NCBI GenBank assembly: GCA_041596235.1
Contig: JBFHIW010000008.1
Span: 12,277-76,276, forward strand
DNA: 64,000 nt
Origin: Paracoccaceae bacterium
Lineage (GTDB): Bacteria; Pseudomonadota; Alphaproteobacteria; Rhodobacterales; Rhodobacteraceae
Direction of reading: 5' to 3'
Part shown: positions 5,194-35,209 of the stretch, piece after piece
Layout: every line of letters starts with the position of its first letter
Position numbering within the stretch: position 1 is the first letter of the stretch
Made by a program: the position numbers and the translations under genes
Notes under the pieces: model-generated
Seen by the model: the letters and a program-made list of their open reading frames with translations, nothing else
Databases searched by the model: none
What the model was told of the DNA's origin: nothing

Positions 5194-5817
5194 ATGAACC
5201 GCACGCATCTTCCCGGCATTCTTGCCATGGCCGCCATCGTCGTGGCCTCGAACATCCTTGTCCAGTTCCTCTTCGGCCAGTGGCTGACCTGGGGCGCCTT
5301 CACCTATCCTCTGGCTTTTCTTGTCACCGATGTGATGAACCGCGTCTATGGCGTGGGTCCGGCCCGTCGCGTGGTCTTTGTCGGTTTCATCGTGGGCGTT
5401 GTCTGCTCGCTGATCGGCACGCAGATCATGGGTGAATTCGGCCCGCTGGTGACGGTGCGCATCGCCATCGGTTCGGGACTGGCCTTTCTGACCGCACAGC
5501 TGCTGGACGTGGCGATCTTCGACCGCCTGCGCGAGGGCCGCTGGTGGCGCGCGCCGCTGGCCTCGACGCTGATCGGCTCTTCGGTCGATACCGCGCTGTT
5601 CTTCACCATCGCCTTCTCGGCCAGCCTGTCCTTCATCGAACCGGCAAATGACGTGTCCTGGGCGGGTGAGGTTCTTCCGCTTCTGGGTGTCGGCCCGATG
5701 GTTCCGCTCTGGGTGTCGCTGGCCGTGGCCGACTGGGGCGTCAAACTTTTGCTCGCTTTGGTGGCACTTGTGCCCTTCCGCATCATCGTGGGGGCACTTA
5801 CCCCGCGCACCACATGA
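5194..5817 (+). CDS. yhhQ: queuosine precursor transporter (VUT family, YhhQ)
   Basis: 207 aa polytopic protein. AIVVASNILVQFLFGQWLTWGAFTYPLAFLVTDVMNRVYG...SSVDTALFF matches the YhhQ/VUT pattern. Confidence 0.8.
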   Translation: MNRTHLPGILAMAAIVVASNILVQFLFGQWLTWGAFTYPLAFLVTDVMNRVYGVGPARRVVFVGFIVGVVCSLIGTQIMGEFGPLVTVRIAIGSGLAFLTAQLLDVAIFDRLREGRWWRAPLASTLIGSSVDTALFFTIAFSASLSFIEPANDVSWAGEVLPLLGVGPMVPLWVSLAVADWGVKLLLALVALVPFRIIVGALTPRTT

Positions 5818-6094: not shown

Positions 6095-6517
6095 ATGCTG
6101 CGCATCAACGACGACATCGCGATCGAGGATTGGGAACTGACCGAGCAGTTCATCCGCGCCAGCGGTCCCGGCGGGCAGAACGTCAACAAGGTCTCGTCGG
6201 CGGTCGAATTGCGCTTCGAAGCGGAACGCTCGCCCAACCTGCCCGCGCCGGTCAAGACGCGGCTGCGGCGGTTGGCCGGGCGGCGCTGGACCAAGGATGG
6301 CGCGATCGTCTTGCAGGTCGATGAAACCCGCAGCCAGGTCCGCAACCGCGAGATCGCGCGCGACCGTCTGGCCGATCTGATCCGTGCCGCTCTTATCGCG
6401 CCCAAGCGGCGGGTTGCGACCAAGCCCACTTTCGGGTCGGTCAAGCGCCGCATCAAGGCCAAGAAGGTGCGCGGCGAGGTCAAGGCGATGCGCGGCAAGG
6501 TCGACGGCGAAGAGTGA
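6095..6517 (+). CDS. arfB: alternative ribosome-rescue factor ArfB (peptidyl-tRNA hydrolase, YaeJ family)
   Basis: 140 aa with the GGQ motif in SGPGGQNVNKVSSAVELRF and a basic C-terminal tail (KRRIKAKKVRGEVKAMRGKV). Confidence 0.9.
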   Translation: MLRINDDIAIEDWELTEQFIRASGPGGQNVNKVSSAVELRFEAERSPNLPAPVKTRLRRLAGRRWTKDGAIVLQVDETRSQVRNREIARDRLADLIRAALIAPKRRVATKPTFGSVKRRIKAKKVRGEVKAMRGKVDGEE

Positions 6518-6650
6518 CCCCAAGGTCACGACCGGGCTGCCTGTTGCCAGAATTTCACTTGATATGCCGGGCGATTGCCCCTATCCACCCGCTTCCTGTT
6601 TCGATACCCGCCCGTTGATCCTTTGGGCCGCTATTCTGGGGGAAGGCACG

Positions 6651-7748
6651 ATGCTGCACACGCCTTACTACCTGATCGACAAGGCACATCTGCTGCCCAA
6701 TATGGAAAAGATCGCGCATCTACGCGAAGCTTCGGGCGCCAAGGCGCTGCTGGCGCTCAAGTGCTTTGCCACATGGTCGGTCTTCGACATGATGTCCGAG
6801 TATATGGACGGCACCACGTCCTCCTCGCTGTTCGAGTTGAAGCTGGGGCGCGACAAGTTTCCCGGCGAAACCCATGCCTATTCCGTGGCCTGGGCCGATC
6901 ACGAGATCGACGAGGTGCTGGCCAATTCCGACAAGGTGATCTTCAACACCGCAGGGCAGTTGCAGCGGTTCGAGGCTGTCAGCCGTGGCCATACCCGCGG
7001 GCTGCGCGTCAATCCCGGTGTCTCGACCTCCAGCTTCGATCTGGCCGATCCCGCGCGCCCCTTCAGCCGTCTGGGCGAACATGACCCCGCAGTGATCGAA
7101 CCCGTTCTGGATATGGTCAGCGGCTTCATGTTCCACAACAATTGCGAGAATGCGGATTTCGACCGCTTCGATGCGATGCTGGGCAGTATCGAGCAGCGTT
7201 TCGGCCATCTGATCCGCAAGATGGAATGGATTTCGCTTGGTGGTGGCATCCACTTCACCGGCGAGGACTATCCGCTGGACCGTCTGGCCGAGCGCCTCAA
7301 GCGGTTCGCGGGCCAGAACGAGGTGCAGGTCTATCTTGAGCCCGGCGAGGCGGCGATCACCAAATCGACCACGCTGGAACTGACGGTTCTGGACACGCTT
7401 TTCAACGGCAAGAACCTCGCCATCGTCGACAGCTCGATCGAGGCGCATATGCTGGATCTTCTGATCTACCGCGAAAGCGCCAAGGTCGCCCCGAACGCAG
7501 GCCCCGAGGAATGGATGATCTGCGGCAAATCCTGTCTGGCCGGTGACATCTTCGGCGAGTTCCGCTTTCCGCAGCCGCTGAAAGCAGGCGACCGCATCAG
7601 CATTCAGGACGCGGCCGGTTACACGATGGTCAAGAAGAACTGGTTCAACGGCGTCAAGATGCCCGCCATCGCCATCCGCGAACTGGATGGCACAGAACGG
7701 CTGGTGCGGGATTTCGGCTACGACGATTTCGTGGCCGCCCTCTCGTGA
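6651..7748 (+). CDS. nspC: carboxynorspermidine decarboxylase
   Basis: Internal Met of ORF 6384..7748, preceded by GGGGGAAGG. MLHTPYYLIDKAHLLPNMEKI...ALKCFATWSVFD...GTTSSSLFE...CGKSCLAGDIFGEF matches NspC. Confidence 0.9.
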   Translation: MLHTPYYLIDKAHLLPNMEKIAHLREASGAKALLALKCFATWSVFDMMSEYMDGTTSSSLFELKLGRDKFPGETHAYSVAWADHEIDEVLANSDKVIFNTAGQLQRFEAVSRGHTRGLRVNPGVSTSSFDLADPARPFSRLGEHDPAVIEPVLDMVSGFMFHNNCENADFDRFDAMLGSIEQRFGHLIRKMEWISLGGGIHFTGEDYPLDRLAERLKRFAGQNEVQVYLEPGEAAITKSTTLELTVLDTLFNGKNLAIVDSSIEAHMLDLLIYRESAKVAPNAGPEEWMICGKSCLAGDIFGEFRFPQPLKAGDRISIQDAAGYTMVKKNWFNGVKMPAIAIRELDGTERLVRDFGYDDFVAALS

Positions 7749-7809
7749 TCGCTTGCGCCGCAGAGGCGCTTTCCTGCAACTGGAACCTTAAAGGAGGTCT
7801 GGTGACACC

Positions 7810-9048
7810 ATGAAACGCAACGTGCTTATCATCGGCGCCGGTGGCGTGGCTCAGGTCGTCGCGCATAAATGCGCGCAGAACAACGAGGTGCTGGGGGATC
7901 TGCATATCGCCAGCCGGACGGTCGCGAAATGTCAGGCGATCCTCGACTCTGTCCATGAAAAAGGTGCGATGAAACAGCCGGGCGTGTTCAAGGCCCATGC
8001 GCTTGACGCGCTGGATACCGCTGCCGTAGCGCAGCTGATCCGCGACACGGGTTGCCAGATCGTGATCAACGTGGGCTCCCCCTTCGTGAACATGTCGGTG
8101 CTGCAGGCCTGCATCGAAACAGGTGCGGCCTATATGGACACGGCCATTCACGAAGATCCCGCCAAGATCTGCGAGACCCCGCCCTGGTATGGCAATTACG
8201 AATGGAAACGCCGCGAGGCCTGCGAAAAGGCGGGCGTCACGGCCATCCTTGGCATCGGTTTCGATCCGGGCGTGGTCAATGCCTACGCGCGGCTTGCGGC
8301 GGATGACTACATGGATACCGTCACTTCGATCGACATCGTGGACATCAACGCAGGGTCGCACGGGCGCTGGTTCTCGACCAATTTCGACCCGGAAATCAAC
8401 TTCCGCGAATTCACCGGCACGGTCTACAGCTGGCAGAACGGCGCATGGCAGACCAACACCATGTTCGAAGTGGGCCGCGAATGGGATCTGCCCGTCGTGG
8501 GCAAACAGAAAGCCTACATGACCGGCCATGACGAGGTGCATTCATTGGCCGCCAACTATCCGGGTGCCGATGTGCGCTTCTGGATGGGCTTTGGCGATCA
8601 CTACATCAACGTCTTCACCGTCCTGAAGAACCTCGGCCTGCTGTCGGAACAGCCGGTGAAAACCGCCGAGGGTCTTGAGGTGGTGCCGCTCAAGGTCGTC
8701 AAGGCCGTGCTGCCCGACCCCTCCAGCCTTGCGCCGGATTATGTGGGCAAGACCTGCATCGGCGATCTGGTGAAGGGCACCAAGGATGGCAAACCCGTTG
8801 AGGTGTTCATCTACAACGTCGCCGATCACAAGGACGCCTATAATGAGGTCGGCAGCCAGGGCATTTCCTATACCGCAGGCGTGCCCCCGGTCGCCGCCGC
8901 CATGCTGATCGCCAATGGCACCTGGGACGCCGGCACCATGGTCAATGTCGAGGAACTGGACCCCAAGCCGTTCCTGACGCTTCTGGACCAGATCGGTCTG
9001 CCCACCCGCGTCAAGGATGCGGCGGGCGACCGTGCGTGGAACGCGTAA
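7810..9048 (+). CDS. carboxynorspermidine synthase/dehydrogenase (saccharopine dehydrogenase family)
   Basis: 412 aa with Rossmann motif VLIIGAGGVAQVVAHK, and ...GFDPGVVNAY...TGHDEVHSL... typical of CANSDH. It lies adjacent to nspC. Confidence 0.85.
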   Translation: MKRNVLIIGAGGVAQVVAHKCAQNNEVLGDLHIASRTVAKCQAILDSVHEKGAMKQPGVFKAHALDALDTAAVAQLIRDTGCQIVINVGSPFVNMSVLQACIETGAAYMDTAIHEDPAKICETPPWYGNYEWKRREACEKAGVTAILGIGFDPGVVNAYARLAADDYMDTVTSIDIVDINAGSHGRWFSTNFDPEINFREFTGTVYSWQNGAWQTNTMFEVGREWDLPVVGKQKAYMTGHDEVHSLAANYPGADVRFWMGFGDHYINVFTVLKNLGLLSEQPVKTAEGLEVVPLKVVKAVLPDPSSLAPDYVGKTCIGDLVKGTKDGKPVEVFIYNVADHKDAYNEVGSQGISYTAGVPPVAAAMLIANGTWDAGTMVNVEELDPKPFLTLLDQIGLPTRVKDAAGDRAWNA

Positions 9049-9725: not shown

Positions 9726-11429
9726 CTATCCCCTGTCCAGCATGCCGCGCCGGTTGCGAAACACCAGCGCCGGCAAGGTCAGCGCCAGCGCAAAGCCGAT
9801 CAGCGGCATGATTGTCTGCGACAGGGCATAGACCCCGATCAGCCGCCGGTCACCCCCCGATGACAGGGCCACCGCCTCGGTCGTGAGGGTGGCGACCCGA
9901 CCCATCCCGATCAGGATCGTCGGCAGGTATTGCCCCACGGAGACCGCAAATCCCACCGCTGCCGCCACCAGCACGGGCCGCAGCATCATCGGCAGGCGCA
10001 CCCGCCACAGGATACGCTCTGCCCCCGCGCCAAGGCTGGCCGCCACCAGCCCCTGACGCGCATCCCAGGCTCGCCAGGGATCGGACAGCGACAGGAATAC
10101 GTAGGGCAGCACGAAGATGACATGCGCGGCAATCACCGCCGCCCGCGCGCCGGTCCAACCTGTGCCGATGGCCAGCGTTTGCAACCCGATCAGAAAGGTG
10201 GCCTGCGGCACGATCAGCGGCAGATAGAGCAGCCACAGCGCCCGCCCGGATTGCTTCAGGCCGTGGCGATATTCGGCCTCAAGGCAGGCGATGGTCAGGG
10301 TCACGCTGATCAGCGTGGCCACTGTTCCGATCACCGCCGTTTCCAGCGCGATCCGTGTCAGACCATCCGATTGCCGCATCCAGTTGCGCCATGTGACCTG
10401 ATCGGGCAGCAGGTCCGGGAAGGTCCAGAACCCTGCGACGGACCAGACCGCCAGCCCAAGGATCCCCAGACCCACGGCCAGCGCCATGATCAGCGCCAAC
10501 CCCATCGACAGCGCGCGCATCGCCCCATCGCGGGCCATCCGATGCCCCCGCCGGATGCAGGCACAGCCCGCCCGCGCCACCACATGCTCGCCCAGCCGCC
10601 ACAGCGCCAGCACCCCAAGGATCAGCACCAGTTGCAGCACCGCCCCTGCCGCCGCCTGAAAGCGCAGGCTCAGGTTAGGATCCGACAGCCATTCCAGAAC
10701 CTGCACCGCAAGCGTCGATGGCCGCGTCGGCCCCAGAATCAGCGCCACATCAATGACCGAGGATGAATAGGCCAGCACCGCGTAGACCGGCAGGCGGATC
10801 TGCGCATAAAGCCGGGGGAAGACCGTCAGCACCCAGCCCGCCATGCGCCCGTAACCCATCGTCTGCGCCAGCAGGACCGATCGCCGTGCCGGCACCTGTC
10901 CGAGTGCCGCCAATGTCATCAGCAGCAGGAACGGCACTTCCTTGACCACCAGCCCCGCCATCAGCGACAGGCCCCAGGGGTCTTGCGTGATCAGGATATC
11001 GGGGGGGTGATCCCACCCCGTCGCCCAAGGCGACAGCGCCCGCGCGATCCAGCCCGAGGGCGTGATCAGAAAGGCCAACCCGAAGGCGGCGGCCGCATGG
11101 GGCACGGACAGCAACGGCGACAAGGCCCGTTCGATCACGCCGAAGGCACGGCTACCCTGCCATGCGGCACAGATCATCACCGTGATCATCAGCGACAAGA
11201 CCGTCGCCCCCAAACCGGTGAACAGGCTCAGCCAGATGGCACCCGGCAATCCGGGCCATGCCACCAAGGCGCGCCATGGCTCCACCGACAGGGACGTGCC
11301 GCCTAAGGCGGGAAACCAGCCGAAGGCGGGCGCCAGCACACCCGCCAGCCCCGCACCCACCGGCAACAGCAGAACCGCGATGGTCAGCGCGGGCGCCAGC
11401 GGCAGCAAGGCATTCCGGAACCGGGGCAA
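9726..11429 (-). CDS. ABC transporter permease, duplicated two-domain type (YnjC/ThiP-like)
   Basis: 567 aa polytopic protein of about 12 TM. Its size and position between the binding protein and the ATPase match ynjC-type fused permeases. Confidence 0.75.
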   Translation of the reverse strand: MPRFRNALLPLAPALTIAVLLLPVGAGLAGVLAPAFGWFPALGGTSLSVEPWRALVAWPGLPGAIWLSLFTGLGATVLSLMITVMICAAWQGSRAFGVIERALSPLLSVPHAAAAFGLAFLITPSGWIARALSPWATGWDHPPDILITQDPWGLSLMAGLVVKEVPFLLLMTLAALGQVPARRSVLLAQTMGYGRMAGWVLTVFPRLYAQIRLPVYAVLAYSSSVIDVALILGPTRPSTLAVQVLEWLSDPNLSLRFQAAAGAVLQLVLILGVLALWRLGEHVVARAGCACIRRGHRMARDGAMRALSMGLALIMALAVGLGILGLAVWSVAGFWTFPDLLPDQVTWRNWMRQSDGLTRIALETAVIGTVATLISVTLTIACLEAEYRHGLKQSGRALWLLYLPLIVPQATFLIGLQTLAIGTGWTGARAAVIAAHVIFVLPYVFLSLSDPWRAWDARQGLVAASLGAGAERILWRVRLPMMLRPVLVAAAVGFAVSVGQYLPTILIGMGRVATLTTEAVALSSGGDRRLIGVYALSQTIMPLIGFALALTLPALVFRNRRGMLDRG

Positions 11430-11444: not shown

Positions 11445-12656
11445 TTAGCGCGCGACGCCGAAGCGCGCCTCCCAATCCGCCGCGATGCGCTGCATCCAGC
11501 TGGGATGCGGCTCGGGCAGGGCGGGGCCCAGATCGGCGGGCGACAGGGTTGCGATCCCAAGCTCCAGTGCCGCAAATCGCGCGGCATCCTCGGGCGGCAG
11601 CTTGTCCATGGCCAGAACCGTGGGTGTGCCCATGACCGCCGCATCCTGCTTGTGCAACTGCGCCTCCACCGACATCAGATAGTTCGCGACGACCATCGCC
11701 CCGGCCTTTGCGTTGGCGTTGAACGGGATCGCCAGAAAGCTGGCATTGCCGATCGTGCCGCCGTCCAGCACCAGACTCCGCACCGTGTCGGGCAGTTCGA
11801 AATTGGCAATCGCCGCCGAAGCCTCGCCCGGGCTGAAGGAGATCGCGATGTCGATTTCATTGTCGGCCATCAGTTGCCGCTGGGCGGGACCATTCTGCGG
11901 ATAGGCCTGCCCCTGACGCCACAGATGCGGTGTCAGCGCCTCGATATAGGCCCAGAGCGGGGCTGTCACGGCATCGTAGTCGGCCTGATCGACCGGCGCA
12001 TATAGCGGTGCGGTATCGCTGACCAGGCTCAGCAATGCCTGTTTCAGAAAGGTCGTGCCAAGGAAATCGGGTGGCTGCGGATAGGTGAAGCGGCCCGGAT
12101 TGGCGACTGCCCATTCCAGAAAGGCCGGCATCGTGCGCGGCGGCTCTGCAAGGCGCGCACTGTCGTAGTAAAAGACCACGCGCGCCATGCTCCAGGGCGC
12201 TTCCAACCCTTCGACCGGCACGGTGAAATCCGCGATCAGGGCAGGGTTCGCCTCTGGGTCGACCAGCGACCAGTTGGGAATATCCTCGACCCATGGGCCG
12301 AACAGCAGCCCGTTTTCCTTCATCGCGGCGAAATTGGCACCGTTGATCCAGATCATGTCGATCGATCCGCCCTCGATCTGGCCCGCCGCCTTCTCGTTCA
12401 GCACGGTTGAAACGGCTGTGGCCGTGTCGGACAGTTTCACATGCTCCAGCGTCACGCCGAACTGATCCTGCACCTGCTGGCCGGCCCATGCGATATAGTC
12501 ATTGGTGCGCGGGTCACCGCCCCAGGCATTCCAGTAGACCGTCTGCCCGCGCGCCTCTTGCAGTACGCTGTCCCAGGCCTTGGGGTCGGGATCGGCAAAG
12601 GCCGGCAGGGAAAGGCACGCAACAAGCGCGGTGGTCTTTGTCAGTCTGGCAATCAT
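11445..12656 (-). CDS. ABC transporter periplasmic substrate-binding protein (YnjB-like)
   Basis: Internal Met of ORF 11445..12767 gives the signal peptide MIARLTKTTALVACLSLPAFA. It is the first gene of the three-gene importer operon. Confidence 0.75.
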   Translation of the reverse strand: MIARLTKTTALVACLSLPAFADPDPKAWDSVLQEARGQTVYWNAWGGDPRTNDYIAWAGQQVQDQFGVTLEHVKLSDTATAVSTVLNEKAAGQIEGGSIDMIWINGANFAAMKENGLLFGPWVEDIPNWSLVDPEANPALIADFTVPVEGLEAPWSMARVVFYYDSARLAEPPRTMPAFLEWAVANPGRFTYPQPPDFLGTTFLKQALLSLVSDTAPLYAPVDQADYDAVTAPLWAYIEALTPHLWRQGQAYPQNGPAQRQLMADNEIDIAISFSPGEASAAIANFELPDTVRSLVLDGGTIGNASFLAIPFNANAKAGAMVVANYLMSVEAQLHKQDAAVMGTPTVLAMDKLPPEDAARFAALELGIATLSPADLGPALPEPHPSWMQRIAADWEARFGVAR

Positions 12657-12837
12657 TACAGCTCTCTTTATTCTGGGATGGCCTGTCTTGGCCCGTGTCC
12701 GTCGAGAAACACCGCACGGTGCCGTTTCGTCAACCGTTGGCGTTACACAATTTCGTAGAACGCCCACCCTCCGGAGGCCTTTACACCCGTCGCCCCTTGG
12801 ACTTGACTGACCGCAGGACAGGTCCGGGGAGGGGCTG

Positions 12838-14295
12838 ATGGGATTGCGCTTTTTCTCGGATCGCGACAGGCCGGTGCATCTTGGTCCCTATCCGCTGGAG
12901 CGGCTGACGCGGCAGGATGCCCGCCCCGATCATCCGGCTGTGCCCCCGATGCCCGCGCTGGATTTCCACAGGCCCGACACCCCCCGCAGCATCGTCAACG
13001 CGATGGGCGAATATCAGGCCATGCTGGATGCCATCCGCGACGGTATGGTCAATCGCGCGCGCGCGGTCAGTCCCGACGACCCGCAAGAGCGCGCCAACCA
13101 TCTGAAGGCCTTCGGCTATTTTTCCGATGCCTCGATGGTGGGGATCGGCCCTGTGCCCGCCGGGGCGCTTCTGGATCTGCCCCGGCGCAACCCTGATATC
13201 GACCGTCTGGCCCATGATCTGAAAACGCGACAGACCAAGACGCTGGCCTCGGGCATCGACATGATCATGGCCGATCTGAAGGATTCGATGGAGGCCCCGC
13301 CGCGTGGTATCGCCGGGCATCACACGGCGCTGGTCTTTCTGTACGAACATCACCGTGACCCGGCTATGGACGAGGCGGGTGCGGCATGGATCATGGATGC
13401 GCAGGCGCATCGCGCCTGTCTGCGCGGGTCGGAAACCGCCGTGGTGCTGGCCAATTACATCCGGCTTCTAGGCTTCGACGCCTGCGCGCACAGTTACACG
13501 ACATCCGATGTCGATCTGCACCCGCTTGCCGTGGCGGCGGGGCTGATCACCGTAGAAGATGCGGCATTGGTCGCGCCATGGTTGGGGACGCGCTTTGGCC
13601 TTGCCGCCGTGACAACGGATATGGAGCTTGCCCATGACCGCCCGCTTGCCCCCATGGCGCGGCAGCCCTGGTTTCGCACGCAGGGCCTCGCATGGTGGCT
13701 GGGCAAGGGCACGGCCAAGTCGGCGCTCAATCGCGATCCCTTCCGCCGTCGCGCCTATGCCATGGGCGCGCATCCGTTTGAAACGCTCAAGCGCGTGGAC
13801 ACGCCCACCACCTATATCGACGAGGCTCGCGTGGCCCGCGTGCCCAAGCGCGCCGATCTTTTTGCGCGCGCGCAGTTCGGCGACATGGGCAAGGTGGTGC
13901 AGAAAGGGGCGACCGGCGGGCATTACGTGCGCAAGTCCGCGCCCAGTTCGGCGCAGCGCCGGGTGCTGGGGGCTTTCGTGCTGTTGCAGGATGGCGATCC
14001 GGCGCCTGAAAAGACCCGCCTCGATCCGGCAGAGGCCGCCGATCTGGTCAAGGCTTCCGCCTATTTCCTTGGCGTCGATGCGGTGGGCATCTCGCGCTGC
14101 CCGGACTGGGCCTGGTATTCCCATGACGCCACAGGCGCGCCTATCGAACCGCCGCATGATCAGGCGATCAGCATGATCATCGATCAGGGCTACGAGACGA
14201 TGGAGGGCGCCTCGGGCGATGACTGGATCAGCGTTGCGCAATCCATGCGCGCCTATCTGCGGTTCTCGCTGCTGGGTGGTGTCATCGCGCGGTAG
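12838..14295 (+). CDS. reductive dehalogenase-like protein, N-terminal/cobalamin-domain fragment (ends at in-frame TAG)
   Basis: 485 aa. It is in the same reading frame as ORF 14335..16050 and is separated from it only by TAG at 14293-14295. Readthrough gives ...GGVIAR*IRNLGYKAKAH, an RdhA/QueG-type IRxLGYxA motif. Confidence 0.6.
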   Translation: MGLRFFSDRDRPVHLGPYPLERLTRQDARPDHPAVPPMPALDFHRPDTPRSIVNAMGEYQAMLDAIRDGMVNRARAVSPDDPQERANHLKAFGYFSDASMVGIGPVPAGALLDLPRRNPDIDRLAHDLKTRQTKTLASGIDMIMADLKDSMEAPPRGIAGHHTALVFLYEHHRDPAMDEAGAAWIMDAQAHRACLRGSETAVVLANYIRLLGFDACAHSYTTSDVDLHPLAVAAGLITVEDAALVAPWLGTRFGLAAVTTDMELAHDRPLAPMARQPWFRTQGLAWWLGKGTAKSALNRDPFRRRAYAMGAHPFETLKRVDTPTTYIDEARVARVPKRADLFARAQFGDMGKVVQKGATGGHYVRKSAPSSAQRRVLGAFVLLQDGDPAPEKTRLDPAEAADLVKASAYFLGVDAVGISRCPDWAWYSHDATGAPIEPPHDQAISMIIDQGYETMEGASGDDWISVAQSMRAYLRFSLLGGVIAR

Positions 14296-14334
14296 ATCCG
14301 TAACCTGGGCTACAAGGCCAAGGCCCATAGCGTC

Positions 14335-16050
14335 ATGGACGGCGAGGTTCTGCAGCCGCCCCTGCTGCTGCTCTCGGGGCTGGGCGAGGTCAGCCGCATC
14401 GGCGAGGTGATCCTGAACCCGTTCCTTGGCCCGCGTCTGAAATCGGGCGTTGTGACGACCGATTTGCCGATGGCCCATGACCGCCCGATCGACTTCGGAT
14501 TGCAGCGTTTTTGTGAATCCTGCAACAAATGTGCACGTGAATGCCCGTCAGGCGCAATCACCGCCGGTCCCAAGCTGATGTTCAACGGCTACGAGATCTG
14601 GAAATCCGACAGCCAGAAATGCGCGACCTACCGCATCACCACACCGGGTGGTGCGATGTGCGGGCGCTGCATGAAGACCTGTCCCTGGAACCTTGAGGGG
14701 CTTTTCGCTGAAAAACCCTTTCGCTGGGCCGCAATGAACATGCCGGGTGCCGCACCGGCGCTGGCGCGGCTGGATGATGCGCTGGGCCGTGGCGGGCTGA
14801 ACCCGGTCAAGACATGGTGGTGGGATCTGGAGATCGAAGAGGACGGCGGCTATCGCCCCACCCGCTACCCGGTCAACCGGCGCGGCCTGCAAAAGGATCT
14901 GAAACTGCGCTACGCCGATCAGACCCTTGCCGTCTATCCCGCGCCGCTGGCCCCGCATCCCTGGCCCTATCCCGCCCCGATGGATCGCGAGGCAGGGATT
15001 GCCGCCTACCGCGCCATGATCCCGGCGGCCGAACATCGCGCCCGTCTGGCGCAGGGCGACGAGAGCCACGTCCACCGTTACACCGTGCCCTCGGACGCCC
15101 CTGTGATCGAACTGCGCGTGTCACGGATCGAACGCATGACCGCGGATGTGACGAAATTCGAATTCACGGCACCCGATGGTGGCGACCTGCCGGAATGGAC
15201 TGCGGGCGCGCATCTGGATATCGTCGTCGCCCCCGAGTACCTGCGGCAATATTCGATGTCGGGCGATCCGGCGGACCGGTCGCGCTATCAGATCGGGGTG
15301 CTGCGCGAAGATGGCGGGCGTGGCGGTTCGAAACTGATGCACCGCATCTTCACACCGGGGCGGCGCGTCTTCATCTCGAAACCCGTCAACCATTTCGATC
15401 TGGTCCAGGATGCGGAAAGAACCCTGCTGATGGGCGGCGGCATCGGGATCACCCCGATGATCGCCTTCGCGCACCGCCTTCATGCGCTGGGGTGCGATTT
15501 CGCGCTGCATTACTCCTGTTCCAGCCGCATGGCGGCGGCCTACCTTGATGATCTGGCGGCTGCACCCTGGGCTGACAGGGTGCAGTTGCACATGTCCGAT
15601 GAAGGCACCCGCGCCGATCTGGATGCGATCCTGTCAGGCTACCGCCCCGGCTGGCATGTCTATGCCTGCGGGCCGGTGCGCTACATGGATGCGGTGATCG
15701 ATGCGGCCACGCGGCAGGGCTACCCGGATGCGGCGCGACATCTGGAATATTTCGCGGTGCCGGAACAGCCCGACTACGTGAACCACCCTTTCACCCTGCG
15801 GCTGGCGCGGTCGGGGCGGGATCTGCATGTCCCTGCCGATCGCAGCGCCACCGATGTGCTGGCCGATGCAGGTGTGCATGTGGATGTGAAATGCGCCGAT
15901 GGCATCTGCGGCGTGTGCAAATGCACCCTGCTGTCGGGCAAGGTGGAGCACCGCGACTTCGTGTTGTCAAAGGCACAGCGCGCGGGCGCGATCATCCTGT
16001 GCCAAAGCCGTGCGGCAGAACCGGACGGGGTGATCGAGATCGACCTCTGA
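14335..16050 (+). CDS. reductive dehalogenase Fe-S portion fused to a PDR-type reductase (FMN/NAD-binding plus 2Fe-2S ferredoxin)
   Basis: - Two 4Fe-4S motifs: CESCNKCARECP and CGRCMKTCP.
- RQYSMSG flavin motif.
- LLMGGGIGITPM NAD(P)H motif.
- C-terminal CADGICGVCKC plant-type 2Fe-2S motif.
- The frame is open back to the TAG at 14293-14295. Confidence 0.7.
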   Translation: MDGEVLQPPLLLLSGLGEVSRIGEVILNPFLGPRLKSGVVTTDLPMAHDRPIDFGLQRFCESCNKCARECPSGAITAGPKLMFNGYEIWKSDSQKCATYRITTPGGAMCGRCMKTCPWNLEGLFAEKPFRWAAMNMPGAAPALARLDDALGRGGLNPVKTWWWDLEIEEDGGYRPTRYPVNRRGLQKDLKLRYADQTLAVYPAPLAPHPWPYPAPMDREAGIAAYRAMIPAAEHRARLAQGDESHVHRYTVPSDAPVIELRVSRIERMTADVTKFEFTAPDGGDLPEWTAGAHLDIVVAPEYLRQYSMSGDPADRSRYQIGVLREDGGRGGSKLMHRIFTPGRRVFISKPVNHFDLVQDAERTLLMGGGIGITPMIAFAHRLHALGCDFALHYSCSSRMAAAYLDDLAAAPWADRVQLHMSDEGTRADLDAILSGYRPGWHVYACGPVRYMDAVIDAATRQGYPDAARHLEYFAVPEQPDYVNHPFTLRLARSGRDLHVPADRSATDVLADAGVHVDVKCADGICGVCKCTLLSGKVEHRDFVLSKAQRAGAIILCQSRAAEPDGVIEIDL

Positions 16051-16059
16051 CAGGGTCGA

Positions 16060-17352
16060 TCAGACGACGACCTCCATCGCCTCCTGATCGCCCACGCCGA
16101 AGACGCGCTTGTAGCGGTCGATCTCGTCCGCCGGGCCCATCGCCTTGTTGGGATTGTCCGACAGCTTCACGGTGGGCCGGCCATTGGCCGACACGGCCTT
16201 GCAGACAAGGCTGAAGGGTGCCAGCGCATCGCCCTTGACCAGACCGCGGAAATCATTGGTCAGCAGCGTGCCCCAACCAACGGAGGGGCGCACGCGCCCG
16301 GCGAACTGCTTTTGCAGTTCCGCGATCTTCTGCACGTCCAGCCCGTCCGAGAAGATGACCAGTTTCTTGCGCGGATCCTCGCCCCGGCTTTTCCACCAGG
16401 CGATGGCGGTTTCCGCCCCGGTGGCGGGATCACCGCTGTCGATGCGGATGCCGGTCCAACCCGCAAGCCAGTCAGGCGCATTCTGCAGGAAACCCCGGCT
16501 GCCATAGGTGTCGGGCAGGATGATCCGCAGGTTGCCGTCATGCTCTTCATGCCAGTCGGCCAGAACCCGATAGGGCGCTTCGCGCAGCGCCGCGTCATCC
16601 TCGGCCAGGGCGGCATAGACCATCGGCAATTCATGGGCATTGGTGCCGATCGCCTCGATGTCGCGCTTCATCGCGATCAGACAGTTCGAGGTGCCGACGA
16701 ACTTGTCGCCCAGACCCTCGATCAGGGCCTGCACGCAACGATCCTGCCAGAGATAGGAATGCCGGCGCCGCGTGCCGAAATCGGCCAGCCGCAGGCCGTC
16801 GACCTCGCGCAGCGCCTCGACCTTTTCCCACAGCTTCGTCATGGCGCGGGCGTAGAGCACCTGCAGTTCAAACCGCCCCATCGTGTTCAGCACCGCGCGC
16901 CCGCGCAATTCCATCAGTACGGCCAGTGCGGGGATTTCCCACATCATCACCTCGGGCCAGCTGCCTTCGAATGTCAGCTCGTACTGGTCGCCCTTGCGCT
17001 CAAGGTGATAGGGCGGCAGGCGCAGCGCCTCGAACCATTCCATGAAATCGGGGCGGAACATCTGGCGCTTGCCGTAGAAGGTGTTGCCCCGCAGCCATGT
17101 GCTTTCGCCGCGCGTCAGCGAGAGCGAGCGGATGTGATCCAGTTGCTCGCGCAGCTCGCCCTCGTCGATCAGCCTGGCCAGCGGCACATGGGTCGAGCGG
17201 TTGATCAGGCTGAAGGTCACCTGCGTGTCGGGCTTGTTGCGGAATACCGATTGGCACATCAGCAGTTTGTAGAAATCCGTGTCGATCAGCGACCGCACGA
17301 TCGGGTCGATCTTCCAGCGGTGATTCCAGACGCGGGTGGCGATATCGACCAT
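16060..17352 (-). CDS. pncB: nicotinate phosphoribosyltransferase
   Basis: 430 aa. DPIVRSLIDTDFYKLLMCQSVF...FGTRRRHS... is the classic PncB pattern. Confidence 0.9.
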   Translation of the reverse strand: MVDIATRVWNHRWKIDPIVRSLIDTDFYKLLMCQSVFRNKPDTQVTFSLINRSTHVPLARLIDEGELREQLDHIRSLSLTRGESTWLRGNTFYGKRQMFRPDFMEWFEALRLPPYHLERKGDQYELTFEGSWPEVMMWEIPALAVLMELRGRAVLNTMGRFELQVLYARAMTKLWEKVEALREVDGLRLADFGTRRRHSYLWQDRCVQALIEGLGDKFVGTSNCLIAMKRDIEAIGTNAHELPMVYAALAEDDAALREAPYRVLADWHEEHDGNLRIILPDTYGSRGFLQNAPDWLAGWTGIRIDSGDPATGAETAIAWWKSRGEDPRKKLVIFSDGLDVQKIAELQKQFAGRVRPSVGWGTLLTNDFRGLVKGDALAPFSLVCKAVSANGRPTVKLSDNPNKAMGPADEIDRYKRVFGVGDQEAMEVVV

Positions 17353-17416
17353 GGGATGGCTCCGTCAATGTGCGTGGCCGTTAAATCAAAGGCCGGTCCA
17401 TGTGTCCAGCGGTCGG

Positions 17417-18090: not shown

Positions 18091-18200
18091 CGGGGGCCTC
18101 CTGTCTTTGTACCAAAGGGGTAGGGGCTTGGTGCGCGCGCGTCAATGTCACGCTGTGCCAAGGCTTGCGCCACAGCGCGCGCGGGCGTAAATCGCAGCCC

Positions 18201-19115
18201 ATGCATATTGTCGCCGCTCTTTATCACTTCACCCGTTTCGACGATCCCTCCGCGATCAAGCCGGCGCTGGCGCGGCTGTGCTGCGGTCAGGGTGTGACCG
18301 GTACGCTGCTGCTGGCGCGCGAAGGCATCAACGGGACCATTGCGGGCAGCCGCGCGGGCATCGACGCGGTGCTGGCCCATATCCGCGCCTTGCCGGGCTG
18401 TGCCGATCTGGAGTGGAAGGAAAGCACCGCCAGCGCGCCGCCTTTCGCGCGCATGAAAGTACGCCTCAAGCGCGAGATCGTGACGATGGGCCAGCCCGAT
18501 GTGGACCCCAAGGCGCGCGTCGGTCATTACGTTGATCCTGCCGACTGGAACGCGCTGATCACCGCGCCCGATGTGGCCGTGATAGACACCCGCAACGATT
18601 ACGAGGTGGCGATCGGTACCTTCCAGGGCGCGGTCGATCCGCAAACCGCCAGCTTCCGCGACTTTCCTGCATGGTGGGAGGCGAACAAGCACCGCTTTCA
18701 CAACAAGCGCATCGCCATGTTCTGCACCGGCGGCATCCGCTGCGAGAAAAGCACCAACTGGCTGCTGGGGCAGGGGGTGGAGGATGTCTATCACCTGAAA
18801 GGCGGCATCCTGAAATACCTTGAAGAGGTGCCGCAGGATCAAAGCACATGGCAGGGCGAATGCTTTGTCTTCGACCGCCGTGTGTCCGTGGGGCATGGGT
18901 TGGCGGAAGGGCCGCATCTGCTGTGCCACGCCTGCCGTCGACCGATCCTGCCCGAGGATCGCAACAGCCCCGCATATGAGGAAGGCGTCGCCTGCCATCA
19001 TTGCGTCGATGAGACGACGGAAGAGGACAAGGCGCGATTCCGCGAGCGGCAGAAACAGATCGCACTGGCGCGGGCGCGGGGTGAGGCGCATCTGGGTGGT
19101 GTCACCGGCCTCTGA
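18201..19115 (+). CDS. trhO: rhodanese-domain tRNA uridine(34) hydroxylase TrhO (YceA family)
   Basis: Internal Met [13 protein letters not shown]...[10 protein letters not shown]...[17 protein letters not shown]...[12 protein letters not shown] is the UPF0176/TrhO pattern. Confidence 0.85.
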
Positions 19116-19161: not shown

Positions 19162-20376
19162 TCAGGCTGCTGCCAACCGCATCGCGCGGCGCGACCGTGT
19201 CAGGATCAGCAGCATGATCCCGATGTTCAGGATATTCCACGCGATCCCGTTGATGAAGGCCATCTGATAGCTGCCGCTCAGGTCATAGATCCAGCCCGAC
19301 ATCCAGCCGCCGATCGCCATGCCCAGAATCGTCGCCATGATCACGAAGCCCACGCGTGCGCCTGCCTCGCGGGCGGGCATGTATTCACGCACGATCACCG
19401 CATAGCTGGGCACGATTCCACCCTGGCTGAGGCCGAAGACAAGGCTGACCATGTAGAGCGAGACCAGCCCGCCCGCAGGCAGATAGAGAAACAGCGCCAG
19501 ACATTGCAGGCCGGACCCGATCAGCAGGGTCATCACCCCGCCAAGCTTGTCGGCCAGCAGACCCGAGATCAGGCGCGACACCACGCCTCCCATCAGCATC
19601 AGCGACAGCATCTCGGCGCCTACGGCAGGGCCGTAACCCAGATCGACGCAATAGGCCACGATATGCACCTGCGGCATCGACATGGCGACACAGCAGCCGA
19701 TCCCGGCCAGACCCAGCAGCCACATCAATGCGCGGGGCGAAAACCCCGCCGATTTCGCCCGTGCGGCGGTGATGCTGTCGGAATGCGCGCTTGCCTCAAG
19801 CGGCACACGCGCGCGCAGGAACAGCGACAGCGGGATCACACCCGCCACGGTGACAAGGGCCAGCACCATATAGACCGCGCGCCAGCCATGATCGGCCAGA
19901 ACGCCCGACAGCAGAAGCGGCCAGATCGCGCCTGACAGGTAATTGCCGCTGGCCGCGATGGCTACGGCAATGCCGCGCCGCTTGAGGAACCACAGCGAGA
20001 TATCGGCGATCAGCGGGCCAAAGCTTGCCGCCGTGCCGAACCCGATCACCAGTTGCAGGAAGGACAGCGTCCAGACCGACCCTGCGATCGAGGCCAGTGC
20101 GAACCCGCCCCCGATGGTCAGGGCCGATGCCGACAGCGCCACGGTGATTCCGAACCGGTCCACCGCGCGGCCGATTACCAGATTGCCAAGGGCAAAGCCG
20201 ATCATCGTCAGCGTATAGGGCAGGGCGGCATCGGCGCGGGCTGTCTGGAACTCGGCCTGCATGGCGGGCATGATGACGATGATCGCCCACATGCCGACAT
20301 TGCCGATCGTTGCGATCAGCAGCGACACGCCAAGGCGGATCCAGGAATAGCGGCTGTCCAGTGCGTCAATACCCAT
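19162..20376 (-). CDS. MFS transporter
   Basis: 404 aa with 12 hydrophobic segments and an OFA-like MFS appearance. Confidence 0.7.
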   Translation of the reverse strand: MGIDALDSRYSWIRLGVSLLIATIGNVGMWAIIVIMPAMQAEFQTARADAALPYTLTMIGFALGNLVIGRAVDRFGITVALSASALTIGGGFALASIAGSVWTLSFLQLVIGFGTAASFGPLIADISLWFLKRRGIAVAIAASGNYLSGAIWPLLLSGVLADHGWRAVYMVLALVTVAGVIPLSLFLRARVPLEASAHSDSITAARAKSAGFSPRALMWLLGLAGIGCCVAMSMPQVHIVAYCVDLGYGPAVGAEMLSLMLMGGVVSRLISGLLADKLGGVMTLLIGSGLQCLALFLYLPAGGLVSLYMVSLVFGLSQGGIVPSYAVIVREYMPAREAGARVGFVIMATILGMAIGGWMSGWIYDLSGSYQMAFINGIAWNILNIGIMLLILTRSRRAMRLAAA

Positions 20377-20513
20377 GGCGCGACGCTAGCCGCGGCTCTT
20401 GCGCTTGTATAGGGCGCCTGCGACCCGGGGGTGACGCAAATGTGTGCCAGTGTGCAAGACAGGCGACACTTGCGCGGTGTAGTCTGCCCCGAAACGATGA
20501 AGGACCCGCAAGA

Positions 20514-21119
20514 ATGATCGATGCTCTGATCCTGCCCACGCAGCGCCGCGTCCTGCATCCGCTGGCGCAGGCGATTCACCGGCGCGGGGTGGCGGCTGAC
20601 CGGATCACGCTGGCGGGCTTTGCCCTTGGGGTGTTGGCGGTGCCGGCCTTGGCCTTGGGCTGGTACGGGGTTGCGCTGGCGCTGATCCTGCTGAACCGGC
20701 TGGCGGATGGTCTGGACGGGGCGGTGGCGCGCATGGGCGCGCCCACGGATCGCGGAGCATTTCTGGATATCGCGCTGGATTTCGTCTTCTACGCCGTGGT
20801 GCCTCTGGGCTTTGCCATGGCCGATCCTGCCACCAATGCGCTGCCCGCCGCCGTGTTGATCGCGGCTTTCGTCGGCACGGGATCAAGCTTTCTGGCCTTT
20901 GCCGTGATCGCGGCCAAGCGCGGCATGCGCGCCGAGGATTATCCGAGCAAGGGCATCTTCTATCTGGGTGGCCTGACCGAAGGGTTCGAGACCATCGCGC
21001 TCTTCGTTGCCATGTGCCTGTTCCCGGTGCTGTTCCCGGTGCTGGCCTATGTCTTTGCCGCCGCTTGTGCGCTCACGACCCTGACACGCTGGTGGCAGGG
21101 CTGGCAGGCGTTCCGCTAG
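20514..21119 (+). CDS. CDP-alcohol phosphatidyltransferase family protein
   Basis: Internal Met MIDALILPTQRR... The motif LLNRLADGLDGAVAR...D...D resembles the D-G-x2-A-R...D-x3-D motif. Multi-TM protein. Confidence 0.7.
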   Translation: MIDALILPTQRRVLHPLAQAIHRRGVAADRITLAGFALGVLAVPALALGWYGVALALILLNRLADGLDGAVARMGAPTDRGAFLDIALDFVFYAVVPLGFAMADPATNALPAAVLIAAFVGTGSSFLAFAVIAAKRGMRAEDYPSKGIFYLGGLTEGFETIALFVAMCLFPVLFPVLAYVFAAACALTTLTRWWQGWQAFR

Positions 21120-30841: not shown

Positions 30842-32941
30842 ATGTCTGATACCACCGCCATCAACGACAAGATCACCATCGAACGGGCGGGCGAAATCGC
30901 CCTGATCCGGATCGACAATCCGCCGGTCAATGCCACCGGACAGGCCGTGCGCCAAGGGTTGCAGGACGCTGTCGAGAAGATCAACGCCGAAGGTACGGCC
31001 AAGGTCATCGCGATCTATGCGGCTGGTCGCACCTTCGTGGCCGGGGCCGATATCCGCGAATTCGGCAAGCCCTTCGTGCCGCCCGCGCTCCCGGATGTGT
31101 TCAACATCATCGAAGCCTCGGCTATCCCGGTGATCAGCGTGCTGCATGGCACGGCACTGGGCGGCGGGCTGGAATTGGGCCTTGCCACCCATGCCCGTAT
31201 CGGGATCGAAGGGTTGCGCGTCGGCCTGCCCGAGATTTTGCTGGGCCTGCTGCCCGGTGCCGGTGGCACACAGCGCATGCCGCGCCTGACAGGCGTGCCC
31301 TTCGCGCTGGACATGATCCTCTCGGGCCGTCAGGTCGCCGCGCCCGAGGCGCTTTCGGCTGGCATCATCGACCGGCTGGACGCTGGCGATCCGCGCGATG
31401 TGGCCTTGAAGGCCGCGCAGGATGTGATCAAGGGTACGCTGAAAACCCGCCGGACCGACCAGATCGCGGTGGTGCCGGATCAGGCGGCGCTGGATCAGAC
31501 CGCCGCCCATCTGAAGAAGACGCAAAGCCATCTTTTCTCGCCCCATAAATGCGTCGAGGCGGTCGCCGCCGCGACCCTGCCCATGGCGGAAGGCCTCAAG
31601 ATCGAGCGCGCAGCCTTCATGGATTGCATGAACACGCCGCAGCGCGCGGGCCTGATCCACGCCTTCTTTGGCGAGCGCGCCGTCAGCAATATCCCCGAGG
31701 CCAAGGGCCCCGCGCGCGACATCGCCCATGTCGGCGTGATCGGCGGCGGCACGATGGGATCGGGCATCGCCACCGCCTGTCTTCTGGCGGGCCTCAGGGT
31801 GACGCTGGTCGAGGTGGCGCAGGACGGTCTGGATCGTGGGATCGCCACGATCACCGGCAATCTTGACGGGGCTGTCAAACGCGGCAAGCTCAAGGCGGAC
31901 AAGCGTGACGCCACCCTTGCGATGCTGACCCCCGCGCTCGAGATGGGCGCGCTGGCGGATGTCGATCTGGTGATCGAAGCCGTGTTCGAGGACATGGGCG
32001 TCAAGAAGGACATCTTCGGCAGGCTGGATGCGATCTGCAAACCCGGCGCGATTCTGGCCTCCAACACCTCCTACCTCGACGTGAACGAGATCGCCTCGGT
32101 GACTGCGCGACCGCAGGACGTGATCGGCCTGCATTTCTTCAGCCCCGCGCATGTGATGCGCCTGCTGGAAATCGTTGTGGCCGACAAGACCGCGCCTGAT
32201 GTCGTGGCCAGCGGCTTTGCGCTGGCGAAAAAGCTGGGCAAGGTCGGCGTGCGCGCCGGTGTCTGCGACGGTTTCATCGGCAACCGGATCCTCGCGCACT
32301 ACAGCAAGACCGCGTCCTACCTCGTTCTGGACGGCGCCACGCCGCAGCAGGTGGATGCCGCGCTGGAAGGGTTCGGCTTTGCAATGGGGCCGCACAAGGT
32401 GGGTGACCTTGCAGGTCTCGACATCGGCTGGATGACCCGCAAGCGCAAGGCCGCCACCCGCGACCCGAATGAACGCTACGCCGGCGCGGTTGCCGACCGC
32501 ATCTGCGAGGAAGGCTGGTTCGGGCGCAAGACCGGCAAGGGCTATTACGTCTATGAGGGGAAAGACATCACCCCCAACCCCGCCGTTGCGACCTTCATCG
32601 ACGAGGCACGCGCCGCGGCCCAGATCACCCCGCGCCAGTTCACCGATCAGGAGATCGTCGACCGCTACATGACCGCCATGATCGTTGAGGCCGCCCGCGT
32701 GGTCGAAGACGGTACCGCCCGCCGCCCGCTGGATGTGGATATGGTGTTCCTGTTCGGCTACGGTTTCCCGCGTCACCGGGGCGGCCCGCTGCACTATGCC
32801 GACACCATCGGTGCCGCCGCACTGGTCGATCGCATCAAGGCCTATGCCAAAGAGGATGCGACCTATTGGCAGGTGCCCGCACTGCTTGAAAAGATGGCCG
32901 CGAACGGCACATCCTTTGCTGACATGAACAAGGAGGCCTGA
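30842..32941 (+). CDS. bifunctional enoyl-CoA hydratase / 3-hydroxyacyl-CoA dehydrogenase (FadB/FadJ-like)
   Basis: 699 aa. N-terminal crotonase fold (PPVNA...FVAGADI), then an NAD Rossmann motif [14 protein letters not shown] and HFFSPA. Confidence 0.85.
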
Positions 32942-32944
32942 GAC

Positions 32945-34132
32945 ATGGACCTGAGTTTTTCCCCCGAGGAAATCGCCTTCCGCGACGAGGTGCGGGCCTA
33001 TCTGGCCGAGAACCTGCCCAAGCGCATCTCGGACGCCGTGCGCAACGGCACCGAGCAGACCAAGGAAATGGCCGAGGAATGGCACGCCATCCTGAACGCG
33101 AAGGGCTGGCTTGCCACCACGTGGGGCGTGGAATTCGGCGGACCCGGCTGGACCCCCGTGCAAAAGCACATCTTCGAGGAGGAATGCTGCCGCGCCTATG
33201 CGCCGCGCATCGTGCCCTTCGGCCTCAACATGCTTGGGCCGGTGCTGCAAGCCTTCGGCACCAAGGAACAACAGGACACCATCCTGCCGCGCATTCTGGA
33301 CGGCACCGACTGGTGGTGTCAGGGCTATTCCGAACCGGGCGCCGGATCGGACCTTGCCAGCCTCAAGACCCGCGCCGTGCGCGACGGGGATCATTATGTG
33401 ATCAACGGCCAGAAAACCTGGACCACGCTGGGCCAGCACGCCAACAAGATCTTCTGCCTCTGCCGTACCGACCCCGAGGCCAAGCAGCAGGAAGGCATCA
33501 GCTTCATTCTGGTCGATCTGGATACGCCCGGCATCGAAATGCGCCCCATCCGCCTGATCGAAGGCGGGCATGAGGTCAACGAAGTGTTCTTCACCGATGT
33601 CCGCGTGCCCGTCTCGAACCTTGTGGGCGAGGAAAACAAGGGCTGGACCATCGCCAAGTTCCTGCTGACCCATGAACGCACCGGCATCGCGGGCGTGGGC
33701 TTTTCCATGCAGTCGCTGGAAGAGGTCAAGGCGCTGGCCCGCAAGATCCGCCGTGGTGGTCGCCCCCTGATCGAGGATCCGCTCTTCGCCGCGCGTATCG
33801 CGCAGGCCGAAATCGACCTTGAGGCCATGAAGATCACCAATTTGCGCATGCTCTTCAAGGCGCAGCAGCAGGGCGCACCGGGGCCGGAAACCTCGATCCT
33901 CAAGATCAAGGGCACGGTGATCCATCAGGAGCTCAAGGACCTTGCGCGCCGCGCGCTCGGTCCGGTGGCCGCACCCTTCCCCGGCTCGATGACGGACGGG
34001 AACATCATGTTCGGCCCCGAGGGCACGTCGAACAACGCCGCGCGCTATTTCAACAACCGCAAGACCTCGATCTTCGGTGGATCGAACGAGATCCAGCGCA
34101 ACATCCTGACCAAGACCATGCTGGAGCTGTAA
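32945..34132 (+). CDS. acyl-CoA dehydrogenase (catalytic-type subunit)
   Basis: 395 aa. YSEPGAGSDL and C-terminal IFGGSNEIQRNIL with the catalytic-Glu context. Confidence 0.8.
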   Translation: MDLSFSPEEIAFRDEVRAYLAENLPKRISDAVRNGTEQTKEMAEEWHAILNAKGWLATTWGVEFGGPGWTPVQKHIFEEECCRAYAPRIVPFGLNMLGPVLQAFGTKEQQDTILPRILDGTDWWCQGYSEPGAGSDLASLKTRAVRDGDHYVINGQKTWTTLGQHANKIFCLCRTDPEAKQQEGISFILVDLDTPGIEMRPIRLIEGGHEVNEVFFTDVRVPVSNLVGEENKGWTIAKFLLTHERTGIAGVGFSMQSLEEVKALARKIRRGGRPLIEDPLFAARIAQAEIDLEAMKITNLRMLFKAQQQGAPGPETSILKIKGTVIHQELKDLARRALGPVAAPFPGSMTDGNIMFGPEGTSNNAARYFNNRKTSIFGGSNEIQRNILTKTMLEL

Positions 34133-34135
34133 CCG

Positions 34136-35209
34136 ATGGATTTCAATCTGACCGAAGACCGCCGGATGCTGCAGGACAGCCTGACCCGCTATCTTGGCGA
34201 CAAGTATCCCGTCGATCACCGCAACAAGGTGGCCTATGCGCTGCCCTGCCATGACCCCGCGAAATGGGATGAGCTGGCCGAGCTTGGCGCGCTGTTCGCG
34301 CTGGCACCGGAAGATGCGGGTGGCTTTGGCGGCACCGGCTTCGACATCATGGTGGTGTTCGAGGCGCTGGGCCGTGCCCTGAACCCCGAACCGATGCTGG
34401 GCGCCGCGATGGCTAGCCGCCTGATGACCAAGGTCGGCGCGGATCAGGAAGCGCTTTTGTCTGGCGCCACGAAATATGCCGTCGGCGTGGGCGAGGTCGA
34501 AGCCCCCTATGAGCTGGACCAGATCGCCTGCACCGCAACCGCCAAAGGCGCGGGCCATGTGCTGTCAGGGCGCAAGTCATCCGTCTATGGCGGGCAGGCG
34601 GCTGATGTGATCCTTGTCGCCGCCATGCTGGATGGAAAAACCGCCCTGTTTCAGGTGCAGGCATCCGACGCCCAGATCGCGGGCTATCCGATGATGGATG
34701 GCGGCGGTGCCGCCGAGATTCTGCTGGATGACACGCCCGCCACGCTGCTGCTGGCCGACGCGGCCGAGGCGCTGACCGATGCGCTGAACGCAGGCACCTT
34801 GGCGCTTTGCGCGGAAGCCGTGGGCGCGATGGAAGTGACCCACGCGACCACGCTTGATTACCTGCGTACCCGCAAGCAGTTCGGTGTGCCGATCGGCAAG
34901 TTTCAGGTGCTGCAACACCGCGCCGTCGACATGCTGACCGAGATCGAGCAGTCCCGTTCGATCACCATCAAGGCCGCCTCCGAACTGGATGGCCCCGATG
35001 CCTCGCGCTTCGTGTCGATGGCGAAAAACCTGATTGGCCGCGCCGCACGGCTTGTGGCGGAGGAATCGATCCAGATGCACGGCGGCATTGCGATGACATG
35101 GGAATACCCGATCTCGCATTACGCCAAGCGTCTGGTGATGCTGGATGCGCAGCTTGGCGATACCGACTACCACCTGTCACGGGTGATGGCGGGATTGCGG
35201 GCGGCGTAA
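34136..35209 (+). CDS. acyl-CoA dehydrogenase family protein (partner subunit)
   Basis: 357 aa, starting 4 nt after the preceding ACAD stop. QFGVPIGKFQVLQHR and QMHGGIAMTWEYPISHY. Confidence 0.75.
   Translation: MDFNLTEDRRMLQDSLTRYLGDKYPVDHRNKVAYALPCHDPAKWDELAELGALFALAPEDAGGFGGTGFDIMVVFEALGRALNPEPMLGAAMASRLMTKVGADQEALLSGATKYAVGVGEVEAPYELDQIACTATAKGAGHVLSGRKSSVYGGQAADVILVAAMLDGKTALFQVQASDAQIAGYPMMDGGGAAEILLDDTPATLLLADAAEALTDALNAGTLALCAEAVGAMEVTHATTLDYLRTRKQFGVPIGKFQVLQHRAVDMLTEIEQSRSITIKAASELDGPDASRFVSMAKNLIGRAARLVAEESIQMHGGIAMTWEYPISHYAKRLVMLDAQLGDTDYHLSRVMAGLRAA

Follow-up and report, generated by a model that had tools for sequence, protein, structure and literature searches.

The window analysed here, a 64,000-nucleotide (nt) stretch of contig JBFHIW010000008.1 from a marine Paracoccaceae bacterium, carries a gene of the reductive dehalogenase (RdhA) type fused to a phthalate dioxygenase reductase (PDR)-like module, and its reading frame is interrupted by one amber codon (Table 1). 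The first-pass annotation, made from the sequence letters, had described two open reading frames (ORFs) sharing one frame with only a TAG between them. Translation of the window in that frame confirmed this, with a single internal stop across 12700-16080. The joined product has 1070 codons when the stop position is counted, in agreement with the length of about 1070 amino acids (aa) proposed at first, and its N-terminus MGLRFFSDRDRP agrees with the N-termini of orthologues. The motifs quoted earlier for [4Fe-4S] clusters, flavin, NAD(P)H and a [2Fe-2S] cluster were all located in the read-through product, where CESCNKCARECP starts at residue 559, CGRCMKTCP at 608, RQYSMSG at 803, GGGIGITPM at 866, and CADGICGVCKC at 1019. 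A single rdhA-PDR gene, disrupted or mis-sequenced, is the proper annotation of the locus, in place of two separate proteins.

Table 1. Coordinates of the interrupted rdhA-PDR gene and its parts in the window
Feature	Position	Strand	Description
5' leader	12798..12837	+	Strong Shine-Dalgarno-like run (GGGGAGGGG) a few bases 5' of ATG 12838
Whole rdhA-PDR fusion gene	12838..16050	+	1070 codons including the internal TAG; 3213 nt
N-terminal fragment, 485 aa	ORF 12838..14295, coding part 12838..14292	+	Vestigial duplicated N-terminal domain and first part of the corrinoid-binding core, including catalytic Tyr473
Amber TAG	14293..14295	+	Context cgg tag atc; takes the place of Gln486
Downstream ORF, 571 aa from Met500	14335..16050	+	Remainder of the corrinoid core, two [4Fe-4S] motifs, linker, FMN/NAD(P)H/[2Fe-2S] reductase module

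For the identity of the protein, the hidden Markov model TIGR02486 (NCBIfam RDH) was the informative one. The read-through product scored 207.9 bits, above the curated cut-off of 160.35 bits, with a main match (residues 441-650) that spans the stop, while the separate halves scored 52.8 and 129.4 bits, both below the cut-off. The model check suggested in the first pass, when run, was therefore passed by the read-through product only. RDH model positions 154-312 match the part downstream of the stop. A second, weaker match, of model positions 4-199 on residues 80-270, reflects the vestigial, duplicated domain that members of the catabolic clade typically carry at the N-terminus. A Pfam scan of the product returned only Fe-S (Fer4_16/Fer4_7) and Fer2 domains and no RdhA-specific domain. 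Against the crystal structure of NpRdhA (4RAS), the product aligned without a break over residues 160-746 (E=1e-161), and phthalate dioxygenase reductase (2PIA) matched residues 749-1066 (E=9e-61). The reductase domains of self-sufficient CYP116B P450s also matched, at about 1e-60. These matches, together with the likeness to JtRdhA described below, bear out the earlier assignment to a self-sufficient class in which RdhA is fused to a PDR-type reductase.

The residues expected of such an enzyme are all in place. The cysteines for two [4Fe-4S] clusters (C559, C562, C565, C569 and C595, C608, C611, C615) are present, and none of their columns varies among the 50 homologues of alignment A1. The plant-type [2Fe-2S] cysteines (C1019/C1024/C1027/C1055) are also present, and Y473, K535, and R599 align with the catalytic Tyr/Lys/Arg of NpRdhA (Y426, K488, and R552). 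No twin-arginine motif was found in the N-terminus. A fold search with the AlphaFold model of the closest intact orthologue returned NpRdhA first, followed by 6KBH, 6LAA, and 2PIA; the mean predicted local distance difference test score (pLDDT) of this model was a moderate 66, and it was used below only for a local statement on one helix. The 120 best database homologues were all about 1070 aa long and 74-92% identical, and many were named reductive dehalogenase; most came from Rhodobacteraceae, such as Ruegeria, Seohaeicola, Shimia, Phaeobacter, and Jhaorihella. Homology clearly identifies the read-through protein as an orthologue of JtRdhA, BhbA, and the Roseobacter MED193 debrominase, all self-sufficient catabolic reductive dehalogenases, and in its layout an NpRdhA-like corrinoid/2x[4Fe-4S] module is joined to a phthalate-dioxygenase-reductase module. 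NADPH-driven dehalogenation of ortho-halogenated phenols and the binding of cobalamin and flavin mononucleotide (FMN) have been shown for relatives only (JtRdhA and Ros_A3X954), and by analogy the same may be expected of an intact form. A complete catalytic subunit has an unbroken frame, and this sequence has TAG at codon 486; as it stands, the gene is a disrupted member of the RdhA family (a pseudogene or an error).

The residue replaced by the stop could be read from the relatives. In the 120-homologue alignment, the stop column holds Q in 113 proteins, H in 6, and L in 1, and the flanking columns are almost invariant. A sense codon stands at this position in 83/83 related genomic loci, and in each of them the ORF runs for at least 1050 codons without a break. 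The three closest contigs (L001-L003) carry CAG. A motif scan caught 80 of the loci, with CAG in 54, CAA in 16, CAT in 6, and CAC in 4, and the 3 others read Q, H, and Q. The stop is thus a single C-to-T transition at 14293, changing Gln486 from CAG to TAG and found only in this sequence. The first-pass guess that tyrosine had been lost (TAC to TAG) was therefore wrong, and Tyr as the ancestral codon is ruled out by the CAG and Gln of the relatives.

The stop is also poorly placed for a natural boundary. Position 486 aligns with His439 of NpRdhA and lies within a predicted helix (463-489; pLDDT about 90 for 481-490), which is followed by a strand at 494-498. Tyr473 precedes the stop, and Lys535, Arg599, all cluster cysteines, and the whole reductase follow it. 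Because the TIGR02486 match and the NpRdhA alignment both span the site, the stop is inside a contiguous conserved block and not at a domain boundary; the earlier view that it replaces one residue and marks no natural boundary was borne out. The outcomes that this annotation had named as speaking against it include orthologues split at the same point and a dehalogenase domain that fails to cross the junction. The domain crosses the junction, and no split orthologue was found among the 120 proteins and 83 loci.

Apart from the stop, the gene showed no decay. Its length of 3213 nt equals that of L001-L003, with zero indels. Compared with the closest relative, L001 (88% nt identity; synonymous divergence, dS, 0.46), the ratio of nonsynonymous to synonymous divergence (dN/dS) was 0.091 upstream and 0.093 downstream of the stop. 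When lineage-specific codon changes were polarised with outgroups, the nonsynonymous and synonymous counts were 53/208 in the window and 44/177 and 40/185 in intact sisters (Fisher p=1.0 and 0.81), and the replacements were divided before and after the stop in the same proportion as in the intact sisters. A simple mixture calculation attributed about 1% of the terminal branch to neutral evolution, and about 4% at the upper limit. Of 414 near-invariant columns, 2 differ in the window copy (Y733H in the linker and T943A in the reductase), within the 0-10 (mean, 1.3) of intact homologues. An old pseudogene is ruled out by the dN/dS values and the lineage-specific counts. Because the rest of the gene is undecayed, the stop is either very recent or not real.

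Between these two, a genuine and very recent nonsense mutation that inactivates the enzyme, making the gene a nascent pseudogene, is the probable explanation; that the base is real and that function is lost are both inferred here. In the intact enzyme, a hydride would pass from NADPH onto FMN, single electrons would then travel through the plant-type [2Fe-2S] and the two [4Fe-4S] clusters to cobalamin, and cobalamin would strip bromine or iodine ortho to the phenol hydroxyl. One C-to-T transition would have turned Gln486 (CAG) into an amber codon inside the corrinoid-core helix, and translation would end after 485 residues. The resulting fragment keeps Tyr473 but is expected to be inactive, because Lys535, Arg599, every Fe-S cluster, and the reductase would be missing. 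As nothing else in the gene has decayed, the mutation would be very young. Misreading of UAG by near-cognate tRNA-Gln is a known low-level event in bacteria; here, it would restore the original Gln and could give traces of wild-type enzyme.

Several points weigh against a recent nonsense mutation. A one-base consensus error would look identical in the sequence, and the lack of decay equally fits an error in an intact gene. The strong conservation of the enzyme throughout the group suggests that selection might act against its loss. In addition, the fragment proteins (by exact look-up) and the junction DNA were absent from the public collections searched. Exact-match junction patterns with N at the variable base gave no match in genome contigs, and two such patterns gave none in metagenome contigs. 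An exact-sequence look-up of the neighbouring PncB likewise returned no record.

The main rival is an error in sequencing or assembly, in which codon 486 is CAG in the organism, the gene is intact and functional, and the consensus was miscalled as T at 14293. We regard this as unlikely, though by no means negligible. The gene is otherwise flawless: indels are absent, dN/dS is about 0.09 either side of the stop, and no catalytic or cofactor residue is missing. A single base change gives back the codon of every close relative. A speculative lead comes from the context of the stop, where GATC (14295-14298) overlaps the last base of the TAG and CCTGG (a CCWGG motif, 14304-14308) lies 9 nt downstream. 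Methylation motifs are sites of systematic substitution errors in some long-read basecallers. If long reads were used and if the organism methylates such motifs, a methylated GATC/CCTGG context could conceivably favour a base-calling error. However, no other sign of poor consensus was seen, as there were no Ns and about 50 genes showed neither frameshift nor truncation; moreover, substitution errors are rare in polished assemblies and only a small share of them make stops. The 12 other genes common with three related loci (L005-L007) are intact and collinear with end-to-end matches, about 40 genes across the window have full-length Pfam matches, and the window contains no ambiguous bases; neither genome-wide decay nor sloppy assembly is therefore evident. 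Sequence alone cannot separate a recent nonsense mutation from a sequence error.

Tolerated or regulated read-through of the amber codon, in which a suppressor tRNA or a leaky context yields enough functional full-length enzyme for selection to continue, is very unlikely. In its favour, purifying selection downstream of the stop is indistinguishable from that upstream, and near-cognate decoding of UAG commonly inserts Gln, the ancestral residue; yet a recent stop explains the missing decay more simply. TAG is also a normal stop in the neighbouring genes. TAG closes both the permease gene 9726..11429 and the gene 20310..21119 at the residue where their orthologues also end. In the gene 18165..19115, the TGA found here is replaced by TAG in two relatives without any change in length, so that the two stops are interchangeable between genomes. 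Reassignment of TAG is ruled out by this termination at orthologous ends. No relative has a stop at codon 486. No stimulatory RNA structure was detected, as the region 14290-14400 (111 nt from the codon before the stop) folds no better than shuffled sequences (z = +0.99), and neither a tRNA gene nor an Rfam element was found in the 64-kb window. On this window-scale evidence (terminating TAGs, no RNA structure, no tRNA gene), recoding or programmed read-through is unsupported; neither a stop conserved in orthologues nor a non-terminating TAG, the marks of such recoding, was seen among the 120 proteins, the 83 loci, and the neighbours. A more elaborate version, in which the amber codon is real and maintained and full-length enzyme is made only when UAG read-through is raised, by a suppressor tRNA elsewhere or a stress-dependent loss of termination fidelity, is more improbable still. 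If it were true, the gene would encode a naturally amber-gated, cobalamin-dependent enzyme in an alphaproteobacterium. Among the three explanations first offered, a suppressed or leaky amber codon is thus disfavoured by TAG terminating the neighbours at orthologous ends, and a nonsense mutation and a sequence error both remain.

Finally, a functional split, in which ribosomes re-initiate at ATG 14335 after terminating at 14295 and an active dehalogenase forms from the two polypeptides (1-485 and 500-1070), is scarcely credible: short-range re-initiation after termination is known in bacteria and ATG 14335 (Met500), the first canonical start after the stop, lies in the same frame 40 nt downstream, but nothing stronger than a weak AAGG stands before it, at a distance of about 11 nt, a natural split occurs here in 0 of 83 loci and 120 proteins, and 14 highly conserved residues (486-499) that hold the end of helix 463-489 and strand 494-498 would be lost. 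Met500 is conserved inside the 'HSVMDGEV' block of intact orthologues and, by this comparison, is an internal residue and not an evolved start. A functional two-piece enzyme is unlikely, and neither a natural split nor recoding is a likely account of the stop.

With a recent nonsense mutation as the preferred reading, the case is an ordinary one, namely a known enzyme class and an otherwise perfect orthologue with one premature amber codon, and it has little importance beyond annotation. A real stop would make the strain a natural knockout. The Roseobacter group otherwise conserves this enzyme strongly, its physiological substrates are still unclear, and comparison with intact sister strains could then help to show its purpose. 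Were the stop an error, the gene would simply join the other intact orthologues.

The genomic setting was that of the relatives. The window has a G+C content of 63%, and over 6848-22161 it runs collinear with the Seohaeicola saemankumensis ac14 chromosome (88% nt identity); the window is also collinear with other Seohaeicola-like genomes. As in relatives, the gene is flanked by a divergent ATP-binding cassette (ABC) transporter (binding protein, permease, and ATPase) and by convergent pncB and pncA. Pfam scans of the neighbours revealed no rdhB, cobalamin, or aromatic-catabolism genes near the locus, and the absence of Rfam elements from the window includes cobalamin riboswitches. A plasmid origin was rejected, since PLSDB gave distant rdhA matches only (73-77% nt) and the window is collinear with the Seohaeicola chromosome. 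By its synteny, the locus is a chromosomal orthologue of the Roseobacter-group enzyme in a Seohaeicola-like Rhodobacteraceae genome. The gap between rdhA and pncB is 9 nt in the window (16051-16059) and in L005, and about 500 bp in the Seohaeicola-like relatives L006, L007, and L008 (about 9214-9757). In the more distant L002 and L003, a 205-aa gene with no Pfam match follows rdhA where pncB otherwise stands.

Opposite real genes, many long antisense ORFs with high third-position G+C were observed, for example at 12781..13410 (-) and 15634..15951 (-). A 209-aa antisense ORF faces the start of rdhA, and in L006 the antisense frame of rdhA is open for over 1000 codons. Such shadow ORFs are typical of a genome with 63% G+C and are not genes.

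Elsewhere in the window, a Vut_1 family transporter (Pfam 'putative vitamin uptake transporter') is encoded at 5194..5817 (+), 7 kb from rdhA. This family includes the queuosine-precursor transporter YhhQ, and the location of the gene near a gene of the QueG/RdhA superfamily is probably a coincidence. At 6384..9048 (+), adjoining genes encode Orn/DAP/Arg-decarboxylase-like and saccharopine-dehydrogenase-like proteins, a pair presumably resembling the carboxy(nor)spermidine decarboxylase/dehydrogenase route to polyamines. Three genes at 30842..35209 (+) lie in the same frame, each starting 4 nt past the preceding stop, and encode a fused enoyl-CoA hydratase/3-hydroxyacyl-CoA dehydrogenase and two acyl-CoA dehydrogenase-like proteins. 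Because they have their own starts and distinct domains, they form a tight operon and are not another interrupted gene. Five stretches of about 0.7-1 kb (25275-26050, 41148-41844, 46977-47702, 50317-50985, and 51871-52852) contain no ORF that passes the filter for G+C by codon position, and no Rfam family or tRNA was found in them.

Among characterised enzymes, JtRdhA of Jhaorihella thermophila (WP_104007082) binds cobalamin, FMN, two [4Fe-4S] clusters, and one [2Fe-2S] cluster, and it debrominates and deiodinates phenols with NADPH (Fisher et al. 2023, PMC10463259). JtRdhA (P0015; 1069 aa) is 77% identical over its full length to the 1070-aa query. The two share the same order of parts, with a vestigial N-terminal domain, the corrinoid core, 2x[4Fe-4S], and the PDR-like FMN/NAD(P)H/[2Fe-2S] module. 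The residues Y426/K488/R552 of NpRdhA, named as key residues (PMC10463259), have equivalents in both. In contrast, JtRdhA has Gln at codon 486, where the window copy has TAG.

The structural reference, NpRdhA of Nitratireductor pacificus pht-3B (4RAS, 6ZXU, and 6ZY1), was matched by Foldseek at an E value of about 1e-47 with target-normalised template modelling (TM) scores of 0.66-0.68. It shares with the window protein the duplicated N-terminal domain, the lack of a twin-arginine translocation (TAT) signal, and the same catalytic triad. Unlike the window protein, it has no fused reductase, and its residue at the stop position is the His439 noted above.

BhbA of Comamonas sp. 7D-2, from the bromoxynil pathway, was the first described member with an RdhA-PDR fusion (PMC10463259). 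The gene on its plasmid (NC_021077) is 75% identical at the nt level over part of the query. BhbA is plasmid-borne in a dedicated catabolic cluster, whereas the window gene is chromosomal and lies between the ABC transporter and pncB/pncA with no pathway genes near. Ros_A3X954 of Roseobacter sp. MED193 debrominates 2,6-dibromophenol (Li et al. 2026, PMC13101508). It belongs to the same Roseobacter-group orthologue family; the 74% identity of its locus (L063) refers to the search query P0001 and not to the window. Ros_A3X954 is intact, and it is more distant from the window gene than the Seohaeicola orthologues.

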